Assembly: GCA_947589375.1 (NCBI GenBank)
Contig: CANQAO010000001.1
Coordinates: 1 to 37,051, forward strand
Length of the DNA stretch: 37,051 nt
Direction: 5' to 3'
From: an uncultured Bacilli bacterium
GTDB taxonomy: Bacteria; Bacillota_I; Bacilli_A; RF39; UBA660
Below, piece after piece: positions 1,035-34,720 of the stretch (positions within the stretch are counted from its first letter, which is position 1; each line of letters starts with the position of its first letter). Made by a program: the position numbers and the translations under genes. The notes below the pieces were generated by a model. That model was given only the letters and a program-made list of their open reading frames with translations, had not been told where the DNA came from and ran no database searches.

Positions 1035-2702
1035 TTATTTATCCTTATTAATTTTAAATGTTGCTTGATAACTATTTTGTAAATCTATTTCATCAACATC
1101 AATATAATATCCCATTTTTTCAATTTCATTGGCGCAATTTCTAATAATTTTAATAACTTCAGCAAAATTAGAACTTGCATCTATGGTCTGTGGAGCTTTA
1201 GTTTCTAAAATATCAGCTGGAGGAATTGGCACTGAAGTTGGAGCTGGCTGAGCAATCGTTTGAGGTTCATTAACCAATGGCGCTGATTGCACTAATTCAT
1301 TATATAAAGATTGATTGTTTGCCGTCGGACCCATAGCCGGAGATTCTGGTTGTAAAGATGGTTCCACTGGCTTTTCAGGTAAATCAGAATTTATAGCTCT
1401 TTGAACAGCCGCAGCAATAGCGGCATTATTATTTACTATCGGTTTTTCTTCTTTAACAAAAGCGGTTGGTGCTGGTTCAGAAATATTTAAAGATGGTTCC
1501 ACTAGCGGAACTTGTTGCGAAGTTGACATAGTAGTCTGAGCTTCTATAGGTGTTGAAGTTTCCACTGGTGTATCATTCATGGTTAAAGATTCTGGTTTCG
1601 GAGTTTCAGCTGGTTGCTGTAAATCAGTAGGTGTAAAATTAAACATTGAATCAAAACTCGTAGTGTTTGGTTGTGCAGGAGCTGGGGCTGGAGTTGGTGC
1701 AGGATTTTCAGCCGCAATTCCAGCAAAATTTACAAATTTATTTTGTTCATCATTTACTAAAGGAATATCGGGATTATTGGCAGGTTTTGGAGTTTCAGTT
1801 ACTTCTGGGGCTGGCTGAGGATTATTTATTCCTTCTAAAACACTAGGTGAATCTGGTGTTTGTTTCATTAATCCCGTAATATCTTTTTCTTCAGATGGAA
1901 CATTAATATCTTGGGCTTCTTGCATTATTTTATCTATATCCATATTTTTTTCCTCCCTTTTTATTCTTTCGTTTATTTCTTGTGGTGGATTAACTTTAAT
2001 AATATCATGACTAGCAACTGCTACCGCTCTTCGAGGTTTTCGTGGGAGTGGTGTAGCAAATAATTCTTCGATTTCCTTATCATTAGTTGGTGCGGGAGCT
2101 TCTAAAAGCTCTTTGATGGCATCGTCAGTTCTTTTTACGGTTAATCTTTCATTAATAATGCGATTTAGCATTTGTACTTGATCTTGGTTATTGTGAATTC
2201 TAAGTAGTGAACGAGCATGTCTTTCGGAAATTTTTCCGTTTAATAAAGCATATTGAACTTCGTCATCTAAGTTTAACAATCTTATTTTATTAGCTATTGT
2301 TGATTGGGATTTTCCAAGTTTTTTTGCAAGTTCTTCTTGTGTAATATAACCCATATCTAAAATTCTTTTATATGATACAGCTTCTTCAATCGGGGTTAGA
2401 TTTTGTCTTTGAACATTTTCCAGTAAAGCAATTTCTTCACTTTCTTTATCGGTTAGATTTATCACGATAGTGGGAATTACACTTTTACCAGCTAATCTAC
2501 TAGCTTTAAATCTTCTTTCACCGGCAATAATTTCATATTTATTACCAATTTGGCGCACAATAATCGGTTCAATGACACCATATTTACGAATAGATTCAGC
2601 TAATTCATTTAATTTATTATCATCAAAATGAATGCGTGGTTGAAATCTATTTGGCAAAATATCATTCATATTTAAGTAAGTAAAATTGCTGCCATTTTCC
2701 AT
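1035..2702 (-). CDS. ParB/Noc-family nucleoid-binding protein (Noc-like) with a long disordered insertion
   Basis: 555 aa. The N-terminal ParB/Srx domain has PNRFQPR and GERRFKAS (arginine patch, aa 61-68). The HTH region reads LGKSQSTIANKIRLLNL...ISERHARSLL (aa 121-167). Aa ~201-510 are low-complexity P/T/E/Q/A/N-rich. Aa 511-555 (VIKIIRNCANEIEKMGYYIDVDEIDLQNSYQATFKI) resemble the Noc/ParB C-terminal dimerisation domain. It lies directly downstream of rsmG, where noc sits in Bacillus. Confidence 0.9.
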   Translation of the reverse strand: MENGSNFTYLNMNDILPNRFQPRIHFDDNKLNELAESIRKYGVIEPIIVRQIGNKYEIIAGERRFKASRLAGKSVIPTIVINLTDKESEEIALLENVQRQNLTPIEEAVSYKRILDMGYITQEELAKKLGKSQSTIANKIRLLNLDDEVQYALLNGKISERHARSLLRIHNNQDQVQMLNRIINERLTVKRTDDAIKELLEAPAPTNDKEIEELFATPLPRKPRRAVAVASHDIIKVNPPQEINERIKREEKNMDIDKIMQEAQDINVPSEEKDITGLMKQTPDSPSVLEGINNPQPAPEVTETPKPANNPDIPLVNDEQNKFVNFAGIAAENPAPTPAPAPAQPNTTSFDSMFNFTPTDLQQPAETPKPESLTMNDTPVETSTPIEAQTTMSTSQQVPLVEPSLNISEPAPTAFVKEEKPIVNNNAAIAAAVQRAINSDLPEKPVEPSLQPESPAMGPTANNQSLYNELVQSAPLVNEPQTIAQPAPTSVPIPPADILETKAPQTIDASSNFAEVIKIIRNCANEIEKMGYYIDVDEIDLQNSYQATFKINKDK

Positions 2703-6789: not shown

Positions 6790-7404
6790 TTAATCTTCTT
6801 TATATTTTATAACTGTATATCTATTAGGCGCTTCTCCTTCAGATTCACTATAAAGTTTATCAAATTTTGATACCACATTATGAACTATTCTTCTTTCATA
6901 AGAGTTCATCGGATCTAATTTAACTTCGACTTTAGTTTTTAAAACTTCTTTACAGATTTTCTTGATTTCAAAAGCTAAATGTTTTTCTTTTCGAGCTTTA
7001 TAATTAGAAATATCAAGATTTACTTTAAAGTCAAAATTACCATATTTCTTTAAACTTTGACGTAATAGCGTTTGAATACTATTTAAGGTTTTGCCATCTT
7101 TACCAATTAACATCGCACTATCATCAGTAACAATAATAACGGAAAAACCTACTTCACTACTCATAACTTCAAGATTAAATTTCGTGTTCATTTTATGCGC
7201 GAGTTCTTTTAAAAATTCTTTGATATATTCTTTAACCGCGTATTTCGTAGTCACAACTGAAATATATTTTTTACCTTTGAATAATCCACCTTCAGTTTCT
7301 TCAAAATAATAATATACTTCATCTTCACGGACATTTAATTGTTCTAGACTTTTATTTAAGGCCTCTTCTTTATTCTTAGCTTCGTTTCTTACTACTTCTA
7401 ACAT
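6790..7404 (-). CDS. jag: Jag/KhpB (EloR) family RNA-binding protein (Jag_N-KH-R3H)
   Basis: 204 aa with a KH-like core (IGKDGKTLNSIQ) and a C-terminal R3H-type motif (ERRIVH). It sits downstream of yidC, the conserved yidC-jag pairing, and overlaps the yidC 3' end by 29 nt. Confidence 0.85.
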   Translation of the reverse strand: MLEVVRNEAKNKEEALNKSLEQLNVREDEVYYYFEETEGGLFKGKKYISVVTTKYAVKEYIKEFLKELAHKMNTKFNLEVMSSEVGFSVIIVTDDSAMLIGKDGKTLNSIQTLLRQSLKKYGNFDFKVNLDISNYKARKEKHLAFEIKKICKEVLKTKVEVKLDPMNSYERRIVHNVVSKFDKLYSESEGEAPNRYTVIKYKED

Positions 7405-8365
7405 CTTTATGCCTCCTTATAATTAAAGTTTGAATAATTGTAAATAAGCTTCCAGTTATCCAATAAATAATGATACTTGTTGACATTGTGAAAGAAACAA
7501 AGGTGATAAAAATCATCATTATATTCATCATTAATTTCATTTGTTTTTCTTGTTCGGGATTACCCATATTCATACCTGAATTCATCTTAAATGAGAAGAA
7601 AGTGGCAAGCCCAACGGCGATTGGTAAAAGGATATATACCCATGAACCAGTACTAAATGAATTAATAAAATGACCAAAATCTAAACTTGTACCAAATAAA
7701 GCATTAAATGGACTGGTACCTAAATTATAAATTAAGAAATTACCTTCAAAGACCGCTGGAATGCGATAGAGACTTTCTAAGAAAGCAAAGAATAATGGAA
7801 ACTGGATAAAAGCAAATAAACAACCAGACATGGGATTGATATTATGTTTCTTATATATCTGCATCATCTCTTGCGCTTTCATCATCTGATCTTGCTGGCT
7901 ATTGCGATTACGATATTTATTTTCTAAACGTTGTAAATCTTTTGAAGCTTCTTTCATACCTTCCGATTGCATCGCCGATTTTTTACTGATTGGGAAAATA
8001 ATCATCCGAATAATAAGGGTAACGATAATAATCGCTAAACCAAAGTTTTTAACGATTTCCCCAATTTGAATAATAAGCCAGCTCAATGGTTTGATAAATA
8101 AAGTACTCCATATGCCTTCATAACCACCATTAGCCGGCGTAAATTTCGCACATTTTGGAAGTTTTTCAACTTTAACATCATTTTTTTTGTAAGTTTTTAA
8201 TACATCTTCATTCTCGGGCTGACATAAAATATTCGAAACCAAATTTTGACCAGTAGTTGGTTCTTTAACCACCATGCCTTTATCATTTTTTAAATATTGC
8301 GTACATCCAGTTAAAGATAAGGTCATAATCAGCAAAAGAACGACTATTACTTTTTTCTTATGCAT
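7376..8365 (-). CDS. yidC: Membrane protein insertase YidC (SpoIIIJ/YqjG-type lipoprotein)
   Basis: 329 aa with a signal peptide and lipobox LSLTGC, multiple TM segments and a basic C-terminal tail. It follows rnpA in the conserved order. Confidence 0.9.
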   Translation of the reverse strand: MHKKKVIVVLLLIMTLSLTGCTQYLKNDKGMVVKEPTTGQNLVSNILCQPENEDVLKTYKKNDVKVEKLPKCAKFTPANGGYEGIWSTLFIKPLSWLIIQIGEIVKNFGLAIIIVTLIIRMIIFPISKKSAMQSEGMKEASKDLQRLENKYRNRNSQQDQMMKAQEMMQIYKKHNINPMSGCLFAFIQFPLFFAFLESLYRIPAVFEGNFLIYNLGTSPFNALFGTSLDFGHFINSFSTGSWVYILLPIAVGLATFFSFKMNSGMNMGNPEQEKQMKLMMNIMMIFITFVSFTMSTSIIIYWITGSLFTIIQTLIIRRHKDVRSSKKRS

Positions 8366-8366
8366 C

Positions 8367-8702
8367 TTAATTCTCCTTTGTTATTTTTAATATTTCTAAG
8401 GCTTTAAATAAATTTTCTTCCATTTCTTTAAAACTCTTATTTAAAATCCCCTTGCTTACTATTATAATACAATTAAAGTTATTTTGATAGTTTTTTTTAT
8501 CAATTATATTCTTTAATCTTCTTTTATACTTATTTCTAGTAACAGCATTGCCAATTTTTTTACCGACAGAAAAGCCAAATTTATAAGGGGCAGCAGTATT
8601 TTTTTCTAGATAAATAATATAATCTTTATATTTAAAAGCCGTATTGGATTTTATTATGCGATTAAAATCTTCATTTTTTTTTAAAATATTTATTTTTTTC
8701 AT
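8367..8702 (-). CDS. rnpA: Ribonuclease P protein component
   Basis: Basic ~111-aa protein with the RNR-type motif (AVTRNKYKRRLK) in the rpmH-rnpA-yidC order. The start is placed at the ATG (MKKINIL) 5 nt after AGGTGA rather than the upstream GTG used by the track. Confidence 0.9.
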   Translation of the reverse strand: MKKINILKKNEDFNRIIKSNTAFKYKDYIIYLEKNTAAPYKFGFSVGKKIGNAVTRNKYKRRLKNIIDKKNYQNNFNCIIIVSKGILNKSFKEMEENLFKALEILKITKEN

Positions 8703-8748
8703 TTCAATCACCTAATATTTTAAAACCACTGCTTGCCAGTGGTCATAA

Positions 8749-8874
8749 TTAATGAGATAGTACTTTACGTCCTTTTTTTCTACGACTTTTAATTATTTTT
8801 GTTTGCATTCGCGCAAAAAATCCTAATTTTTTACTTCTTCTTCTAGTATTAGGTTGAAAAGTTCTTTTGGTCAT
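8749..8874 (-). CDS. rpmH: 50S ribosomal protein L34 (not in the supplied ORF track)
   Basis: Manual minus-strand translation gives [41 protein letters not shown] (41 aa, TAA stop). This matches the L34 signature KRT(F/Y)QP...GF..RM....GR.(V/I)L..RR.KGRK.L. Confidence 0.9.
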
Positions 8875-8950
8875 TTTTTCACTCCTCTCGCTTTTTTTCT
8901 TTGCGTAAGTTAATTATATAGATAAAAACTATCTTTGTCAAGGAAAATCT

Positions 8951-9126
8951 TTTTCCACAGTTTAATTTTTATTGATTTGTAAAAGCTAAATAATCTTTTA
9001 AACATATGTGGATAAGTAAAAATATATGTCATTTGAGGAAAATTTTTTTATTCACATTTTCTGTGGATAACTATTTTTAGACTTTTATTTAAAAAGGTTT
9101 AAAAATGTGGATAAAAAAGTGGATAA
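8951..9126. promoter_or_regulatory. oriC part 1: DnaA-box cluster upstream of dnaA
   Basis: Three exact TTATCCACA boxes lie on the reverse strand (tgtggataa at 9007-9015, 9062-9070, 9106-9114). One-mismatch boxes are at 8951-8959 (ttttccaca), 9048-9056 (ttattcaca) and 9118-9126 (agtggataa). Confidence 0.85.
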
Positions 9127-10563: not shown

Positions 10564-10670
10564 TTATCCACCTTGCCCTTTCTTAAAAAAAATCAGTTAT
10601 TTAAAGAAAAATTAACACTTTTCCACATAATCCACACTAATAATAAAAATATTAATTAATAATAAAAAAG
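10564..10670. promoter_or_regulatory. oriC part 2: DnaA boxes plus an AT-rich candidate unwinding region between dnaA and dnaN
   Basis: One-mismatch boxes are ttatccacc (10564-10572), ttttccaca (10619-10627) and taatccaca (10628-10636). They are followed immediately by ctaataataaaaatattaattaataataaaaaa, which is almost pure A/T and starts with TAA repeats. Confidence 0.65.
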
Positions 10671-10682
10671 GAGATGTTTAAA

Positions 10683-11804
10683 ATGAAAATTCAAATCAAG
10701 CAAAATATTTTAATTGAACATTTAAATTATGTCATTAAAGGAATTTCCACGAAAAATTTAAGACCTATTTTAAATTGTATTAAATTTGAACTTACCGATG
10801 ATGGTTTATATTTAATGAGTACTGATAATGAAATATCAATTAAAACTTTTATCGATAAAAAAGAAATCGATAAAATCGATGCATGCGGAGAAATAGTCGT
10901 TTCTGGACGCTATATCTATGATATTATTCGTAAATTACCCGATGAACTTATTACGATTGAAGAAGTCATGGATGCGAAAATTTATATTAACACGAAAAAT
11001 TCCTCATTTACTTTAAATTGTAATGATCCAGCAGAATTTCCTGACTTAGAACTTGAATATCGTAAAAAACCAATCTTATTAAATCAAAAAGTGTTCAAAA
11101 CAATCATAAATCAAACAGCTTTTGCTACTTCAACAGGCGAATCACGTCCGGTTTTAACGGGCATCAATTTTAAAATTGAAAATAATCAAATGGAATGTAC
11201 AGCGACAGATTCTTATCGTTTAGCCATTAAAAAAATTGAATTAAATGAAAAGGCCGAAGAAAATAGTAATATAATTATTCCTACTAAAAACTTAAACGAA
11301 TTAGTGAAATTAATGGATGAAGATGATGAAAATATCGAAATTCATATTTTCAACAACAAAGCCATCTTTAAATTTAGTACCATTTCAATGATGACTAGAT
11401 TGATAAGTGGTACTTATCCTGATACTTCGAAATTAGTTCCAGCAGAATTTCTCTTAACTATGCAGACTTCTTTAATGGATTTCTATAATGCGATTGATCG
11501 CGCTTCTTTATTAACCAATGAAAGTGATAAAAATACGATAAAATTTGAAACCAATGATGAGCAAGTTATAATTTCTTCTAATATTCCAGAAATTGGGAAT
11601 GTCGAAGAAAAAATTATGGTAAAAAAGAACAATCAAGAAAATATAAAAATTGCTTTTAATTCGAAATTTATGATGGATGCCGTGCGGGTATTAGATAGCA
11701 GTGAAATTGAACTTTTATTTAATGGTGAATTTAAACCAATTATTATCAAAAATCCTGAAAGTGATGATCTAATTCAATTAATTTTACCAATTAGAACCTA
11801 TTAA
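10683..11804 (+). CDS. dnaN: DNA polymerase III beta sliding clamp
   Basis: About 373 aa with full-length beta-clamp similarity (e.g. TATDSYRLA, LPIRTY C-terminus). The start is placed at the second ATG (MKIQIKQ), 9 nt after GGAG. Confidence 0.96.
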   Translation: MKIQIKQNILIEHLNYVIKGISTKNLRPILNCIKFELTDDGLYLMSTDNEISIKTFIDKKEIDKIDACGEIVVSGRYIYDIIRKLPDELITIEEVMDAKIYINTKNSSFTLNCNDPAEFPDLELEYRKKPILLNQKVFKTIINQTAFATSTGESRPVLTGINFKIENNQMECTATDSYRLAIKKIELNEKAEENSNIIIPTKNLNELVKLMDEDDENIEIHIFNNKAIFKFSTISMMTRLISGTYPDTSKLVPAEFLLTMQTSLMDFYNAIDRASLLTNESDKNTIKFETNDEQVIISSNIPEIGNVEEKIMVKKNNQENIKIAFNSKFMMDAVRVLDSSEIELLFNGEFKPIIIKNPESDDLIQLILPIRTY

Positions 11805-11879: not shown

Positions 11880-11907
11880 GGCATAATCTATGAGGGGGGA
11901 ATTAGCG

Positions 11908-12357
11908 ATGATAGATTATGAAATAACAGGAAGCACTTGTGCTTTAATTGGAATTAATAATAAAGAAACCGAGGTGATTGAAAAAGGTAAACGCTTTATT
12001 ATTCCTAAAAAAACCAAAGATGTTTTAAATGAAAGTTGTGAATTTTATGGAAGTACTTTAGCTGGCCGAATTAAAGGTAGTCAAGTTCAATTAGGAATGA
12101 AATATAAATTACCAATAATTGTTGAAAGTTCTAGGGAATTAGTTTTTTTTCCAACGCTTTCACCACGATTAGAAGATTGTAGCTGGATATCCTTAAAAAA
12201 CATCAAAAGTTATGAAGAAATTGCCTATGGTGTTAATATTGAATTTTGTGATGGAGAAAGCATAAGTCTGCCAATTTCTCTAGAATCTTTGGAAAATCAA
12301 ATCTTTCGAGCGACGAAATTGATGCTTATCGCGCGTAGTCGTCGTGCGAAACTATAA
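11908..12357 (+). CDS. comK: ComK-family competence transcription factor homolog
   Basis: About 149 aa. It aligns with recalled B. subtilis ComK blocks: SCEFYGSTLAGR (cf. SCRFFGSSYAGR), PIIVES...VFFPTLSP...C.WIS (cf. PPIMV...LFPTLS...CGWIS) and LPISLESLENQ (cf. LPISYNSFENQ). The start is at the ATG 8 nt after GAGGGGGG. Confidence 0.8.
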   Translation: MIDYEITGSTCALIGINNKETEVIEKGKRFIIPKKTKDVLNESCEFYGSTLAGRIKGSQVQLGMKYKLPIIVESSRELVFFPTLSPRLEDCSWISLKNIKSYEEIAYGVNIEFCDGESISLPISLESLENQIFRATKLMLIARSRRAKL

Positions 12358-12498: not shown

Positions 12499-13611
12499 AT
12501 GATACTAAAAAATATAGAAATCAGAAATTTTCGAAATTATGAACATCTCAAAATCGACTTAAATAAGAATATTAATATTATTTATGGCGATAATGGTGGC
12601 GGTAAAACCAATATTTTAGAAAGTATTTATGTTTTAACTTTAACTAAATCGCATCGCGCTTTAACTAATGTCGATTTAATTAAAAGTGGAAAAGATAAAG
12701 CCTTAATCAAAGGAACTATGCTGGAAAACATTTCTTATAATTTAGAAATTGAAATTTCGAAAACGCAAAAGCAAGTGAAAATTGATAATGAAGTTATTAG
12801 TAAAATTGGCGATTATGTCAGTAAAATGAATATTATCATGTTTTATGCCGAAGACTTAGAATTAATTCATGGTTTTCCTAGTAATCGAAGGAAATATTTA
12901 AATTTATCGCTTAGTCAAATTTCCAAAAATTATTATAATACTTTAAATGATTACCACAAGTTGCTGCGCACGCGTAATGAATATTTAAAAAGGATCAGTA
13001 ATAATGAAAGTTACGATGCCAATTATTTCGATATTTTAACTGAATATCTAATTGAAAAAAGTGTTTTTATTTATCAAATGCGGGAAAAATATATTGAAAA
13101 GTTAAATGATATTTGTCCAAAAATATATAAAGACATTACTAAATTAAAAGGCTTTAAGATAAAATATCTGCCTACGATTTCGTTAGAAGATAATTCGAAA
13201 GAGGCCATTAGAAAAGAAATGCGCGACAAATTAAAAGAAAATTTTGAAAAAGAAGTGAAATTTAAAACAACTTTATGTGGTCCTCACCGTGATGATTTTG
13301 GATTTTATTTAAATGAAGATAATTTAAAATCATTTGGTTCCCAAGGTCAACAAAGAGTAGCTGTTTTAACTTTAAAATTATCAGAAATTCAAATTTTTAA
13401 AGATTATAAGAAAGATAATCCAATTATTTTATTAGACGATGTTTTTAGTGAGCTTGATAATGAAAAGAAAAATAATTTACTTAAATATATCAATAACGAT
13501 ATGCAGGTAATTATTACAACGACTGATTTAAATAATATCGATGAAAAATTAAAAGCCAAAGCTAAATTAATTAATATTAACAAAGGAAAAATTATAGAAG
13601 AGGTGAAATAA
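12499..13611 (+). CDS. recF: DNA replication and repair protein RecF
   Basis: 370 aa with Walker [13 protein letters not shown], the signature SQGQQR and Walker [12 protein letters not shown]. The stop overlaps the gyrB start (TAATG). Confidence 0.96.
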
Positions 13612-18033: not shown

Positions 18034-18049
18034 TGTTTCACGTGAAACG
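18034..18049. promoter_or_regulatory. parS-1 (ParB-binding centromere-like palindrome), 15/16
   Basis: tgtttcacgtgaaacG compared with the consensus TGTTTCACGTGAAACA. Confidence 0.8.
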
Positions 18050-18076
18050 TTGGTAGAAAGATAGAAAAAGAAATAT

Positions 18077-18092
18077 AGTTTCACGTGAAACA
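18077..18092. promoter_or_regulatory. parS-2, 15/16
   Basis: Agtttcacgtgaaaca; its centre is 43 bp from parS-1. Confidence 0.8.
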
Positions 18093-18250
18093 TAGGATAT
18101 ATTTACTTTTTAAATAAATTAAAACTTAAATTAAAAAAGATATAAACCAAGAAAAATAAGGGCTAATTCATTTATAAGTATTAAAATTAACTTTTGAAAA
18201 AATATTCAAAATTAGTTTAAAGAAATAATATTTTATTATCAAACTTTAAA

Positions 18251-18266
18251 TGTTTCACGTGAAACA
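18251..18266. promoter_or_regulatory. parS-3, 16/16
   Basis: tgtttcacgtgaaaca, extending to the 18-bp perfect palindrome atgtttcacgtgaaacat. Confidence 0.85.
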
Positions 18267-18291
18267 TCATTTGCAGAAACAAAAAAACTAA

Positions 18292-18307
18292 TGTTTCACG
18301 TGAAACA
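18292..18307. promoter_or_regulatory. parS-4, 16/16
   Basis: tgtttcacgtgaaaca; its centre is 41 bp from parS-3. Confidence 0.85.
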
Positions 18308-18477
18308 TAGGATATATTTACTTTTTAAATAAATTAAAACTTAAATTAAAAAAGATATAAGCCAAGAAAAATAAGGGCTAATTCATTTATAAGTATTAAA
18401 ATTAACTTTTGAAAAAATATTCAAAATTAGTTTAAAGAAATAATATTTTATTAATTATTTTATTATCAAACTTTAAA

Positions 18478-18493
18478 TGTTTCACGTGAAACA
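18478..18493. promoter_or_regulatory. parS-5, 16/16
   Basis: tgtttcacgtgaaaca (18-bp palindrome). Confidence 0.85.
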
Positions 18494-18518
18494 TCATTTA
18501 CAGAAATAAAAAAACTAA

Positions 18519-18534
18519 TGTTTCACGTGAAACA
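18519..18534. promoter_or_regulatory. parS-6, 16/16
   Basis: tgtttcacgtgaaaca; its centre is 41 bp from parS-5. Confidence 0.85.
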
Positions 18535-18561
18535 TTGGTAGAAAGACAGAAAAAGAAATAT

Positions 18562-18577
18562 AGTTTCACGTGAAACA
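18562..18577. promoter_or_regulatory. parS-7, 15/16
   Basis: Agtttcacgtgaaaca; its centre is 43 bp from parS-6. Confidence 0.8.
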
Positions 18578-18748
18578 TAGGATATATTTACTTTTTAAAT
18601 AAATTAAAAAGTAAATTAAAAAAGATATAAACCAAGAAAAATAAGGGCTAATTCATTTATAAGTATTAAAATTAACTTTAAAAAAAACATTCAGAATTAG
18701 TTTAAAGAAATAATATTTTATTAATTATTTTAATTATCAAACTTTAAA

Positions 18749-18764
18749 TGTTTCACGTGAAACA
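18749..18764. promoter_or_regulatory. parS-8, 16/16
   Basis: tgtttcacgtgaaaca (18-bp palindrome). Confidence 0.85.
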
Positions 18765-31896: not shown

Positions 31897-32418
31897 ATGA
31901 AAGCAACGGGAATTATAAGGCGAATTGACGATTTAGGAAGAATTGTGATTCCTAAAGAAATACGCCGAAATTTAAGACTGAAAAACGGCGAAAATTTAGA
32001 AATTTTTATCGATGAAAATGAAAACATAATTTTAAAAAAATATAATCAAATTGATAAACTAAAAGAATTTGGGCAAAACATTGCCGATGCCTTTTCTAAT
32101 ATAACCAAAAACAATCTTTTTATTACTAATACCGATACTTTTATTGCCGCTAGCGGTCATAAAAGTAATTATATTGGCAAAGATATTTCCGACGATTTAA
32201 TTTCTTTAATTGTCTCAAGAGGCGATATTAAAATGGAGGGGGCCATTAAAATGACAGCCGCTGAAAATGAACAAGGATTTTTTGCTTTTAGTCCAATCAT
32301 CGCTAGTGGAGATGTTATTGGTTCGGTTATTTTACTGGCGGATCAAGCGATTAGAGATGAGGAATTAAAACTTTTGAAAATAATTTCAACCTTTTTAGCG
32401 AGGTATATTGAAGAATAA
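31897..32418 (+). CDS. spoVT: Stage V sporulation protein T (AbrB-type SpoVT/AbrB N-domain plus GAF-like C-domain)
   Basis: 173 aa. The N-terminus MKATGIIRRIDDLGRIVIPKEIRRNLRL...LEIF is almost identical to recalled B. subtilis SpoVT, and the length and C-terminal domain are consistent. Confidence 0.9.
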   Translation: MKATGIIRRIDDLGRIVIPKEIRRNLRLKNGENLEIFIDENENIILKKYNQIDKLKEFGQNIADAFSNITKNNLFITNTDTFIAASGHKSNYIGKDISDDLISLIVSRGDIKMEGAIKMTAAENEQGFFAFSPIIASGDVIGSVILLADQAIRDEELKLLKIISTFLARYIEE

Positions 32419-32440
32419 AAATAAATATGCTATAATTAGG

Positions 32441-32656
32441 CATAAGCGATGAAGGAAAGAAAAATAGGTGACTTTATAGAGAGTTTATGGTTGGTGGAAA
32501 TAAACAAGGTGACTATTCCGAATGGTTCTGGAGCTTCTTAGCCGAATAATTAAGCTAAGGCGTATATCTGCGTTAAAGATTTAAGGTAAGCAATAGCTTA
32601 TAAATTAAGGTGGTACCACGTAATTTACGTCCTTATGTTTAAGGATGTTTTTTTTT
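32441..32656 (+). promoter_or_regulatory. T-box leader (tRNA-sensing transcription attenuator), probable Met specifier
   Basis: An extended -10 TGcTATAAT (32428-32436) lies upstream. Stem I has a GA/K-turn (gcgATGAagg ... ctgGAGCtt), an AGAGAG box (32478-32483) and a distal-loop motif ggttggtggaaa. The specifier-loop region is ccgaATGgttctggagc (AUG at 32522-32524). The T-box sequence aaggtggtaccacg is at 32607-32620. The terminator stem cgtcctta/taaggatg (32628-32647) is followed by T9. Confidence 0.85.
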
Positions 32657-32669
32657 GGAGATGATTAAC

Positions 32670-33158
32670 ATGCGCAAATTTGAAAAAATCAGTTTATCAC
32701 AGTTTATCAAGGACACAGGATTAACTGAAGCAGAATATCATAAATATAGATTACCTAAAAGAAGCACTAAACATAGTGCGGGTTATGATTTTGCAACCTT
32801 AACTGATTTTACTTTAAAACCAAAAGAAATTAAATTAATTCCAACCGGAATAAAAGCTAATATGAATGAAAATGAGGTATTAATGCTTTATATTCGCAGT
32901 AGTTTAGGGTTTAAATATAATTTACGGATGTGTAATCAAGTAGGTATTATCGATAAAGATTATTATAATAACAAAGACAATGAAGGTCATATTTTTGTAA
33001 AATTACAAAATGAAGGCGATACAATCAAAGAATTTAAATAGGGGGAAAGCATCGTTCAAGGAATTTTTACGAAATTTTTAGTAGTTGATGATGAAAAAGA
33101 AATTACCACGCTTAGGAAAGGTGGAATTGGTAGTACAAATGAGGAGGAAGAAAAATGA
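32670..33158 (+). pseudogene. dut: dUTP diphosphatase (trimeric dUTPase family) interrupted by one in-frame TAG at 33039-33041
   Basis: The N-terminal part (MRKFEKIS...SAGYDF...IPTG...RSSLG...VGIIDKDYYNNKDNEGHIF...) ends at TAG. The same frame then continues for 38 codons, GESIVQGIFTKFLVVDDEKEITTLRKGGIGSTNEEEEK. These carry the conserved QGIF and C-terminal R.GG.GST motifs and end at a TGA overlapping the metG ATG (ATGA, 33155-33158). Confidence 0.8.
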
Positions 33159-34720
33159 AAGATACTTTTTATATTACAACATCAATATTTTATGCATCAG
33201 CCAAACCCCATATTGGCAATTCATATGAGGGCGTTTTAGCGGATGCGATTGCGCGTTATAAAAGACTTACTGGTTATGATGTAAGATTTCATACCGGTAC
33301 TGATGAACATGGGGAAAAAGTCCAAAATAATGCTTTAAAAAACGGCAAAGATCCCCAAGAATATGTGGATGAAATAGCTTTAGAAGTTAAAAGATTATTA
33401 GATATTTTAAACGTTAGTTATGATAAATTTGTAAGAACAACCGATGCGAATCATAAAAAAATTGTCGGTAAAATATTTGAAAAATTATATGAAAATGGCG
33501 ATATATATAAAGGCACATATGAAGGCCTTTACTGCACACCTTGTGAATCTTTTTTTACAGAATCACAGTTAGTAGATGGTAAATGTCCTGACTGCGGAAG
33601 AGAAGTAAAAAAAGCCAGTGAAGAAGCTTACTTTTTAAAACTTAGTAAATATAATGAATGGTTAAAAGATTATATTTTAAACCATCCTAACTTTATTGAA
33701 CCTGAAAGTCGTAAAAATGAAATTATGAATAATTTTATTATTCCGGGAGTTCAAGATTTATGTGTTACTAGAAGCTCATTTGATTGGGGCATTAAAGTAC
33801 CATTTGATCAAAAACATGTAACTTATGTGTGGTTAGATGCCTTAGCTAACTATATTACTTTTTTAGGGTATGATCCCGATAATGAAAGTGATGATTTTAA
33901 TAAATATTGGCCAGCTGATATTCATATTATTGGCAAAGATATTTTAAGATTTCATACAATTTATTGGCCAGTAATGTTAAAAGCTTTAGGTCTTGCAATG
34001 CCGAAAAAAATCTTTGGTCATCCTTGGGTTTTAGCGGCTGATAGTGATAAGATGAGTAAATCTAAAGGTAATGTTTTATATGCTGATAAACTTGTAAATT
34101 TATTTGGTGTTGATGCTGTTAGATATTATTTATTACATGAAATCCCTTATGGACATGATGGTTATATTAGTTATGAATTATTAATTGAAAGAATTAATTC
34201 AGATTTAGCTAATATTTTAGGTAATTTAGTTAATAGAACAATTACTATGGCTCATAAATATTTTGATGGTATTATTTATAAACCAGAAAAATTGGAAGAA
34301 GCTGATTACGAATTAATCGAAATGGCCAAAGGTTTAAAGAATAAAGTCGAAGAAAAGATGAACAATTTAAAAATTGCGGAAGCGATTGATGAAGTTTTTG
34401 AACTATATCGTCGTAGTAATAAATATATCGATGAGACTACACCTTGGATTTTAGCTAAAGATGAAAGTCAAAAAGAAAGACTAAAAACGGTTATTTATAA
34501 TTTGTTAGAAGCCATTAGAACGGCTACGGTTTTCTTACAAGCCTTTTTACCAGATACCGCCGATAAAATTTTTGAGCAGTTAAATACGCAAAATCGACAA
34601 ATTGATTCTGTAGATAATTTTGATGGTATGGATGATGGTATTAAGTTAAATCAGCCAGAAGTATTGTTTGCGAGAATTGATAAAGATAAGAAATTAGAAG
34701 AAATCGAAAATGCCGAATAA
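33155..34720 (+). CDS. metG: Methionine--tRNA ligase (short form without the C-terminal tRNA-binding domain)
   Basis: 521 aa with the class I motifs HIGN (HIGH-type) and KMSKS, and the Zn knuckle CxxC...CPDC. Confidence 0.96.
   Translation: MKDTFYITTSIFYASAKPHIGNSYEGVLADAIARYKRLTGYDVRFHTGTDEHGEKVQNNALKNGKDPQEYVDEIALEVKRLLDILNVSYDKFVRTTDANHKKIVGKIFEKLYENGDIYKGTYEGLYCTPCESFFTESQLVDGKCPDCGREVKKASEEAYFLKLSKYNEWLKDYILNHPNFIEPESRKNEIMNNFIIPGVQDLCVTRSSFDWGIKVPFDQKHVTYVWLDALANYITFLGYDPDNESDDFNKYWPADIHIIGKDILRFHTIYWPVMLKALGLAMPKKIFGHPWVLAADSDKMSKSKGNVLYADKLVNLFGVDAVRYYLLHEIPYGHDGYISYELLIERINSDLANILGNLVNRTITMAHKYFDGIIYKPEKLEEADYELIEMAKGLKNKVEEKMNNLKIAEAIDEVFELYRRSNKYIDETTPWILAKDESQKERLKTVIYNLLEAIRTATVFLQAFLPDTADKIFEQLNTQNRQIDSVDNFDGMDDGIKLNQPEVLFARIDKDKKLEEIENAE

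Follow-up and report, generated by a model that had tools for sequence, protein, structure and literature searches.

A 37,051-nt stretch of DNA from an uncultured Bacilli bacterium of the GTDB order RF39 (assembly GCA_947589375.1, contig CANQAO010000001.1, positions 1 to 37,051; hereafter the window) encodes on its minus strand, at positions 1035 to 2702, a Noc-like protein of the ParB family in which the folded N-terminal and C-terminal domains are separated by an acidic, disordered linker. With a probability of roughly one half, we read this protein as a Noc-derived clamp operated by cytidine triphosphate (CTP), characteristic of a lineage of uncultured gut Bacilli, in which the contacts with effectors have moved to motifs carried on the long acidic tether. 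At least 160 homologs of 416–766 aa share its architecture. Within the literature searched, on ParB in RF39 and on disordered or proline-rich linkers in Noc and ParB proteins, this family with a long-linker Noc-like design is not previously described; in a recent survey of proteins with the ParB-CTPase fold, Noc is taken to keep the canonical architecture (PMC12704722).

Domain architecture and distribution of the family

The gene (555 codons plus stop) was delimited from the list of open reading frames (ORFs), its Pfam domains and homologs of like architecture. It begins with a CTP-binding ParB_N domain (residues 7–98, positions 2409 to 2684; PF02195, E value 1.5e-30, above cutoff), followed by an HTH_ParB DNA-binding domain (residues 100–200, positions 2103 to 2405; PF17762, E value 5.2e-33), and it ends in a C-terminal domain of one helix and a beta-hairpin (residues 511–555, positions 1038 to 1172). 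The succession of ParB_N and helix-turn-helix domains, together with a score of 171 bits against parB_part (TIGR00180, cutoff 58), places the protein in the ParB/Noc clamp superfamily. Judged by their residues alone, CTP-binding boxes I–III are predicted to be intact, and the PNRFQPR, GERR and ENxQR boxes (P17-R23, G61-R64 and E95/N96/Q98/R99) are invariant in an alignment of 49 non-redundant sequences.

A protein search returned at least 120 matches of 416–694 aa at 41–67% identity, many of them full-length. A profile of the linker (residues 208–362 of 21 members), run against 1.84 billion cluster representatives, yielded 52 clusters from the same family and from no other; bar a few fragments, these are proteins of 450–770 aa matched at about residues 200–400, behind a ParB N-terminus. 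Since nearly all of the complete matches lie in ParB-headed proteins, the linker motifs exist only in this architecture, and a regular-expression search of all ORFs in 39 loci (545 kb of the lineage's DNA close to the origin) found them in no other ORF. The pattern MDIDKI[ML]xE, taken from the linker, identified 33 GTDB species-representative genomes, all of them uncultured metagenome-assembled genomes (MAGs) and mostly labelled 'Bacilli bacterium', and those family members that carry an organism label come from uncultured gut MAGs. One host, Candidatus Coprosoma intestinipullorum, belongs to the GTDB order RF39, family CAG-822 (PMC8035907). Only one member, P0039, carries a source name, and its label reads 'ParB/RepB/Spo0J family partition protein'. 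In public assemblies, no record matches the window protein exactly.

A folded part probably derived from Noc

The folded part of the protein lies closest to Noc. Its best NCBIfam match is nucleoid_noc (TIGR04285), at 266.1 bits against the 171 bits for TIGR00180. Among sequences in the PDB it matches Noc (7NG0/7NFU) at 208 bits and Spo0J at 165, and its top Foldseek matches are to Noc at 46–51% identity, with the DNA-binding domain (DBD) matching the complex of Noc with the Noc-binding site (NBS), 6Y93, at a template modelling score of 0.89–0.92 and 50% identity. In the alignment to 7NG0/7NFU, the base-contacting positions of the recognition helix, GKSQSTIANKIRLLNL...ISERHARSL (GKSQSTIANK), are identical to those of Noc. 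Four positions set the preference for parS or NBS, and parS-specific variants always carry Arg at position 173 (PMC7383237). The protein has Q133, K139, N144 and R161 at these positions, where Noc has Q, K, K and R (173, 179, 184 and 201) and ParB has R, T, A and G, so that three of the four match Noc. Q133, K139 and R161 are invariant in the 49 sequences, and regular expressions read QKNR in 127 members out of 160, while every one of the 137 that could be parsed has Q-x-x-R. Gln173 reads adenine 1 and Arg201 reads cytosine 6, given one permissive Lys at 179 or 184 (PMC7383237); the residues that read parS, R173 with G201 or another small residue, do not occur, Gln and Arg being invariant in the family. 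The evidence hence favours a folded part that would be derived from Noc, with base-contacting residues of the Noc type and not of the ParB type. The gene lies directly after mnmE-mnmG-rsmG in the window, in relatives and in one complete 1.54-Mb genome, and soj-spo0J do not follow it; this location, downstream of rsmG and near oriC, is the one that noc has in Bacillus. Furthermore, the ParA-binding motif (L/F/I)G(K/R)G(L/F/I), as defined in PMC12704722, is present in the first 60 residues of none of the 160 members.

An earlier note on this DNA, made from its letters and ORF translations, had supposed that the short N-terminus lacks the membrane-targeting helix of Bacillus Noc, and the alignments bear this out: residue 9 of the protein aligns with residue 30 of 7NFU, a Geobacillus thermoleovorans Noc with a full N-terminus, and exactly 16 residues stand ahead of PNRFQPR in 143 of 160 members. 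In canonical Noc this helix, released when CTP binds, ties the DNA to the membrane. The extreme N-terminus of Noc is very highly conserved and predicted to be amphipathic in all homologues examined by Adams et al. (2015; PMC4331003), and a NocNdelta10 variant does not function without the addition of a foreign membrane helix (Adams et al., 2015). The binding of CTP switches on membrane binding by Noc through this helix, with alpha1 and alpha2 as the membrane-targeting helices, and in the crystal of apo-Noc the membrane-targeting helix is held in an autoinhibited state (Jalal, 2021; PMC8429893). To go by its sequence, the family is in effect a natural Ndelta22–26 Noc.

The C-terminal domain is presumed to be the dimerisation domain and appears weakly Noc-like. 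Its profile aligns without gaps to residues 244–283, the last 40, of the Bacillus subtilis Noc sequence in a weak match (hhalign E value 5.8e-4, probability 29%), and the domain adds 6.8 bits to the TIGR04285 score. Scans of the domain alone with Pfam and NCBIfam gave nothing meaningful, and a profile search of the PDB for solved structures gave chance matches only (E value of about 1).

An acidic, disordered linker maintained across the family

The earlier note had described a disordered, Pro/Thr/Glu/Gln-rich insertion of about 310 residues at positions 1173 to 2102, in an open segment richer in GC than its surroundings and, in its view, translated and maintained. The extent is exact, the segment being equal to residues 201–510, between the Pfam domains and the C-terminal domain, and from its composition and predicted local distance difference test (pLDDT) values it would comprise a short native linker followed by an acidic Pro/Ala/Gln/Thr-rich disordered insertion. 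Compared with the 27 other ORFs of the window, Pro (15.5% vs 2.6%, about 6-fold), Ala (11.0% vs 4.9%, about 2-fold), Gln (6.1% vs 2.4%, about 2-fold) and Thr (8.1% vs 5.2%) are all more frequent, and Glu is enriched just 1.1-fold, so that Pro/Ala/Gln/Thr-rich and acidic describes the linker better than the earlier wording. There are no Cys or Trp residues and 0.3% Tyr; Lys, Arg and Gly are also depleted, and the net charge is negative. Among 136 members the linkers measure 209–522 aa (median 375), each of them is net acidic (median net charge per residue -0.074), and their 50,718 residues include no Cys and four Trp.

Structure prediction points to disorder as well. AlphaFold2, run with the 49-sequence alignment, gave pLDDT values of 80–97 over residues 1–201, below 50 over most of residues 280–508, and 76–85 over the C-terminal helix and hairpin (residues 509–552), with weak and isolated predicted helices at residues 241–251, 256–267, 276–279 and 426–437. 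No Pfam or NCBIfam model matched residues 201–510 in scans of the whole protein or of the linker alone. A compact hidden domain in residues 208–362 was considered and rejected, because that region by itself was predicted with a template modelling (pTM) score of 0.16. By homology to Noc, the true insertion would span about residues 240–510, to judge by the B. subtilis Noc sequence and by the TIGR04285 alignment of a spliced construct (residues 1–232 joined to 511–555), which aligns with the model from end to end. The basic PRRxA segment (residues 222–232) aligns with what we take to be the native linker of that Noc sequence.

The frame of the linker contains no stop in 310 codons, against 7–35 stops in the five other frames, and at the local composition a frame of this length would stay open by chance with a probability of about 2e-9. 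The GC content is 0.35–0.40 over about positions 1050 to 2250 and 0.22–0.31 in the flanks, in line with the CCN, GCN and ACN codons that such an amino acid composition entails. The survey of at least 160 homologs upholds translation and maintenance of the segment, and it shows a family-wide architecture where the earlier note had allowed for a strain-specific, frameshifted expansion: among 31 complete orthologous genes, 30 remain intact up to and including the C-terminal domain (three further genes run off contig ends), the ratio of nonsynonymous to synonymous substitution rates (dN/dS) is below 1 in all regions of the gene, and in no member found has the linker reverted to a short one, its length being about 210 aa or more throughout. 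At locus L017 (positions 7356 to 9035) the gene lacks the conserved C-terminal domain and has in its place a basic tail unrelated to it (...SRAKYSRRHNNRTSSGTNK), probably through a frameshift or an assembly error.

An origin of the insert in DNA tandem repeats was also considered and set aside, as Tandem Repeats Finder (TRF) detects none in the window gene; the repeated VEPSL that the earlier note had pointed out is a short recurrence only. Elsewhere in the family, the linker of the 623-aa homolog P0112 contains three tandem units of about 28 aa (...MNAQGVFDAGVQNEAPxM...), which suggests that in some members the spacer may change its length by the expansion of repeats. In the 690-aa proteins P0045, P0050 and P0100 (loci L034/L035, positions 10598 to 10834), the last helix-turn-helix helices and the start of the linker are duplicated internally (ISEGHARSLL...ERLTGKMTD...), and the Ca. 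Coprosoma protein at locus L013 (621 aa) appears closely related to this 690-aa clade.

Conserved islands within the linker

The linker is a mosaic of six to eight short conserved islands among unalignable spacers of variable length. Mean pairwise identity is 0.78 in the N-terminal domain (NTD) and DBD, 0.50–0.61 in the islands, 0.62 in the C-terminal domain and 0.20, with 45% gaps, in the spacers, and dN/dS against the closest relative (locus L001) takes the values 0.03, 0.32, 0.19 and 0.47 for the same regions, the first of which is thus under very strong purifying selection. Positional conservation is given below for the 49 sequences or for a smaller alignment of 28, A1. After a first island at residues 209–215 (xxVExLF), island B (residues 222–245, KPRRAVAVASHDIIKVNPPQEINE, positions 1968 to 2039; consensus KPRRAVPVASHEIIKVxPPKELEE) consists of a basic patch and a PPKELEE-type motif; it is conserved in alignments A1 and A2 and probably includes the ancestral Noc linker. 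Islands C and D (residues 250–281, EEKNMDIDKIMQEAQDINVPSEEKDITGLMKQ, positions 1860 to 1955) form the most conserved part of the linker and carry two short predicted helices (residues 256–267 and 276–279, pLDDT 50–71). Residues 250–267 follow the consensus ERGxxxMDIDKIMxEAQDIN, in which M254, D255, I259, A263, D265 and I266 are invariant in the 49 sequences, so that MDIDKIMQEAQDIN (residues 254–267), with its six invariant positions, is the most conserved island of all; residues 273–281 follow KDISxLMKQ, with M279 invariant in the same set. Two Phe-containing motifs come next: island F (QNKFVNF, residues 320–326, positions 1725 to 1745), in which F323 is invariant and K322 at least 90% conserved in A1 and the leading Gln is not conserved in the family, and island G (TSFDSMFNFT, residues 348–357, positions 1632 to 1661; consensus VSFDSIFNQxP), in which F350, D351 and F354 are at least 90% conserved. 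Island H (residues 488–500, PTSVPIPPADILE, positions 1203 to 1241; consensus NIPDxDI(I/L)E), with P494 and I498 at least 90% conserved, lies near the end of the linker. A further weak helix (residues 426–437, pLDDT of about 60) within residues 424–439 (NNNAAIAAAVQRAINS, positions 1386 to 1433) is kept in the nearest clade only.

The four islands quoted in the earlier note are all present. Two of them, NKFVNF and SFDSMFNF, extend across the family, and the other two, NAAIAAAVQRAI and LYNELVQ, are conserved in the closest clade only; MDIDKIMQEAQDIN had been missed. That the islands are under selection is borne out by their 50–60% identity, against 20% in the spacers. Of the two roles that had been proposed for them, binding to membranes and binding to a partner, the first fares badly. 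Residues 256–266 form the sole Pro-free amphipathic helix conserved across the family (hydrophobic moment 0.69), and since this helix is acidic (net charge -2 to -3), the binding of a partner protein fits better than direct binding to lipid, which is unlikely for any of the islands. A comparison by eye of the islands with the beta-clamp-binding motif (QL[SD]LF), the PIP box, the FtsZ C-terminal peptide and the tip of the single-stranded DNA-binding protein (SSB) found that none fits. The region shows the low order, biased composition, indel-rich spacers and short conserved segments of a disordered region with short linear motifs, and the pattern of its conservation is, as read from the alignments, that of a disordered tether in which length and composition are kept and short linear motifs are under sequence-specific selection.

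The same region might be a purely connecting, tolerated stretch of low complexity, with islands that are remnants of the ancestral linker or that reflect local structural preferences. Spacers that cannot be aligned, a 2.5-fold variation in length, a spacer dN/dS of about 0.5–0.66 and the lack of any fold in the AlphaFold predictions are all in keeping with this, and the internal repeats and duplications of P0112 and P0045 suggest growth driven by slippage. The explanation is nonetheless unlikely, given that M254, D255, I259, A263, D265, I266, M279 and F323 are invariant deep in the linker, far from either domain, that F350, D351 and F354 are so highly conserved, and that the islands persist where the spacers have fully diverged. 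A tolerated linker is also hard to square with the minimum of about 210 aa kept by every member found and with a composition that is uniform over 50,718 residues, and the loss of a membrane-targeting sequence that is essential in Noc calls for a compensating feature.

Arrays of parS sites near the origin

A site search located a dense array of eight parS sites (GTTTCACGTGAAAC core) between gyrA and the signal recognition particle (SRP) RNA gene, at positions 18034 to 18764 (unstranded), where 0.01–0.23 would be expected by chance. Five of the eight are perfect 16-mers (TGTTTCACGTGAAACA), and the array falls within three direct repeats of about 215–270 bp. The gyrA-ffs intergenic regions of three relatives, obtained via their GyrA homologs, contain similar arrays: at least seven sites with a period of 38–39 bp at locus L036 (positions 12505 to 12751), where the array runs into the contig end, seven sites in about 1 kb at L037 (12615 to 13582), and four perfect sites in about 400 bp at L038 (12493 to 12910). 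Such predicted origin-proximal sites, eight in the window and more in the arrays of its relatives, are what a canonical ParB would be expected to use.

The arrays raise the possibility that the protein is the sole chromosomal ParB of these bacteria, binding the parS array downstream of gyrA, loading SMC and organising the origin without ParA, with the linker as a spacer that carries motifs for segregation or anchoring. In favour of this account are the presence of four to eight canonical parS sites between gyrA and ffs in the window and three relatives, a conservation of the NTD and DBD like that of GyrA (dN/dS 0.03), and a short N-terminus without a ParA motif, as expected of an organism that lacks ParA. 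Searches for ParA and for a second ParB covered origin-proximal DNA, namely the window and 545 kb from relatives. No parA (soj) gene is present in the window or next to the gene in the complete genome, tblastn with a Soj sequence found none in the 545 kb of relatives' origin regions, and neither the 37-kb window nor the 545 kb of origin-proximal loci holds a second gene of the ParB family. The specificity residues speak against a sole ParB, in that Q133 and R161 are invariant in the family, whereas parS-specific variants always have Arg at 173, and Q173 and R201 with a permissive Lys switch binding to NBS (PMC7383237). The recognition helix is moreover identical to that of Noc, and the promoter of the gene holds an NBS half-site and not parS. 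With Noc-type specificity residues in this protein, it is simpler to expect a canonical ParB at some other place in the genome, and a role for the protein as sole ParB is accordingly unlikely. It is quite unlikely, too, that in this gut lineage of reduced genomes one ParB-family protein does both jobs, binding the parS array as the sole centromere protein in spite of its Noc-type residues and coupling the chromosome to division or the envelope through the tether motifs, in what would be a merger of segregation and nucleoid occlusion free of both ParA and a membrane helix.

Promoter and NBS-like sites

A promoter scan placed the promoter of the gene at positions 2736 to 2764 of the minus strand (TTGAAT, a 17-nt spacer and TATTAT), and a sigma-70-type promoter (TTGAAT, 17 nt, TAT(T/G)AT) is conserved about 55 nt upstream of the start codon. 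The spacer, TATTTCCCAAAAAATAG, contains TATTTCCC, a perfect half-site of NBS (TATTTCCCGGGAAATA), within the promoter element TATTTCCCAAAAAATA. The spacer form TATTTCCC[G/A]AAAAATAG (AAAAATA) is shared by the window with about 20 of 35 relatives, amid intergenic DNA that has otherwise diverged, and the half-site could serve as an auto-operator. The 5' untranslated region and ribosome-binding site (AAAGAATAGAAGGGAGGGG) of the Noc-like gene are unusually conserved at loci L001–L032. In 487 kb from the window and its relatives, 17 sites lie within two mismatches of the 16-mer NBS, where 0.07 would be expected; besides the promoter of the gene, NBS-like 16-mers occur between mnmE and mnmG (L002 and L005) and in the mnmE coding sequence (L018, L020 and L032). 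These sites would fit recognition of the NBS type and possible autoregulation, short of proof.

The location of the half-site also brings to mind a repressor resembling KorB, that is, a sliding clamp that nucleates at NBS-like operators, including the one in its own promoter, and whose linker motifs recruit a co-repressor or a partner that locks the clamp. KorB offers a precedent for a ParB-family CTP clamp in gene silencing (PMC11790492). In about 20 of 35 relatives the half-site falls exactly within the spacer that separates the -35 and -10 elements, and the NBS-like sites that L002 and L005 have between mnmE and mnmG would suit such a repressor as well. We consider this account very unlikely, seeing that only a half-site is conserved, that it is lost in more distant members that keep QKNR, and that no KorA-like partner gene is adjacent; autoregulation is in any case compatible with a Noc-derived clamp and alone would not account for the linker. 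Lastly, the acidic, Pro-rich region might act on the nucleoprotein complex by tuning its phase separation or bridging, without binding a partner. This idea draws on the resemblance in composition and negative charge to the Pro/Glu/Asp-rich linker of PopZ (PMC9512792) and on the report that Noc phase-separates on membranes (PMC9606368), and it is very unlikely, since it leaves the invariant, sequence-specific islands unexplained.

A proposed clamp with its effector contacts on a tether

In the Noc-derived clamp that we propose, the protein would nucleate at NBS-like sites, one candidate being that in its own promoter, after which the dimer would close as a CTP-dependent sliding clamp whose far end would be held by the C-terminal dimer. 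The conserved motifs, three of them with helical propensity and the strongest being the acidic helix at residues 256–266, would be displayed on the negatively charged tether as short linear binding sites for at least one partner protein, and they may thereby take over the link to the envelope or the division machinery that the N-terminal amphipathic helix provides in Bacillus Noc and that has been lost here. The variable spacer may give flexible reach or act as an entropic brush, and the tether would wall a greatly enlarged clamp lumen.

Several observations weigh against this proposal. The earlier note had left the choice between ParB and Noc open, and the evidence now favours a Noc-derived protein, yet strict membership in Noc fails: the TIGR04285 score stays below the cutoff of 315 bits both for the native protein (266.1) and for the linker-spliced construct (272.9, model positions 3–255 of 255), and the membrane-targeting helices, whose loss is part of the proposal, are absent. 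Canonical parS sites stand in a conserved array 15 kb from the gene, and no canonical ParB was found for it in the window or in 545 kb of relatives' origin regions. No full NBS (ATTTCCCGGGAAAT) occurs in the window within two mismatches, and the 17 NBS-like sites among the window and its relatives amount to about four or five independent positions, chiefly the promoter of the gene itself. A hydrophobic-moment scan found no basic, membrane-binding amphipathic helix in the linker; as no island resembles such a helix, the relocation of the effector contacts is something that we infer only. The islands bear no recognisable match to known binding motifs, and a linker that is merely tolerated would likewise be expected to have free indels and a dN/dS of about 0.5 in its spacers.

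A whole lineage keeps a highly constrained clamp of the Noc type without the membrane helix and with an acidic tether and invariant motifs in the clamp linker. Should these motifs bind partners, a CTP-gated DNA clamp would here be coupled to the envelope or divisome in a different manner, and the family would be a natural experiment on linker length, and thus on the size of the clamp lumen, in ParB-type sliding clamps. In addition, the default annotation 'ParB/RepB/Spo0J family' hides a distinct family in common gut bacteria of humans and animals, and conserved parS arrays without nearby ParAB raise the question of how RF39 chromosomes are segregated.

Other features of the window

In the origin region, a ComK-family gene lies between dnaN and recF at positions 11890 to 12357 of the plus strand and keeps this position at loci L034 and L036–L038. 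Also on the plus strand, a SpoVT/AbrB-type regulator gene (31897 to 32418), in a lineage with reduced genomes (the complete MAGs of relatives measure 1.3–1.5 Mb), precedes a T-box leader (Rfam RF00230, 123 bits; 32440 to 32637), which stands upstream of a small dUTPase-like ORF (32655 to 33041) and a methionyl-tRNA synthetase gene (33155 to 34720).

Comparison with known systems

Among known systems, the closest is Noc of B. subtilis and G. thermoleovorans (TIGR04285; 7NFU, 7NG0, 7OL9 and 6Y93), with which the protein shares the CTP boxes, the QSTIANK helix, the Q/K/R specificity residues, the xERHAR motif (read as SERHAR here and as TERHAR in Noc), an identity of about 50% across 200 aa, a gene directly downstream of rsmG and the lack of a ParA-binding motif. 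A short helix-plus-hairpin C-terminal domain, collinear with the Noc C-terminus in a weak alignment, may be added to these. It differs from Noc in missing helices alpha1 and alpha2 (about 22–26 residues), which are highly conserved and required in the canonical protein, in having Asn for Lys at position 184, in scoring below the family cutoff and in having no soj-spo0J after the gene. Furthermore, the family has a disordered, motif-bearing insertion of 210–520 aa where Noc has about 30 residues. With ParB/Spo0J (TIGR00180; 1VZ0, 6SDK and 4UMK) it has in common the CTPase domain, the helix-turn-helix domain, a C-terminal dimerisation domain and a flexible linker, as well as an origin-proximal gene and parS sites near the origin, and it differs in lacking the LG(K/R)GL motif and an adjacent parA, in having Gln and Arg for Arg and Gly at positions 173 and 201, and in a linker ten times longer.

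Likenesses in design extend to proteins outside the superfamily. The PopZ linker is likewise an acidic, proline-rich, disordered spacer, which separates a helical binding motif from an oligomerisation domain (PMC9512792). PopZ has no homology to the present family, does not bind DNA and has a linker of about 80 aa.

The FtsZ C-terminal linker with its peptide and the SSB linker with its acidic tip are variable disordered tethers that present short conserved peptides to partners. By analogy of design, length and composition are conserved in them rather than sequence, as is the case here. They are unrelated proteins, and they differ in that the tether of the Noc-like family lies inside the protein, bounded at each end by a folded domain of a dimeric clamp, and bears several motifs where FtsZ and SSB carry one terminal peptide.

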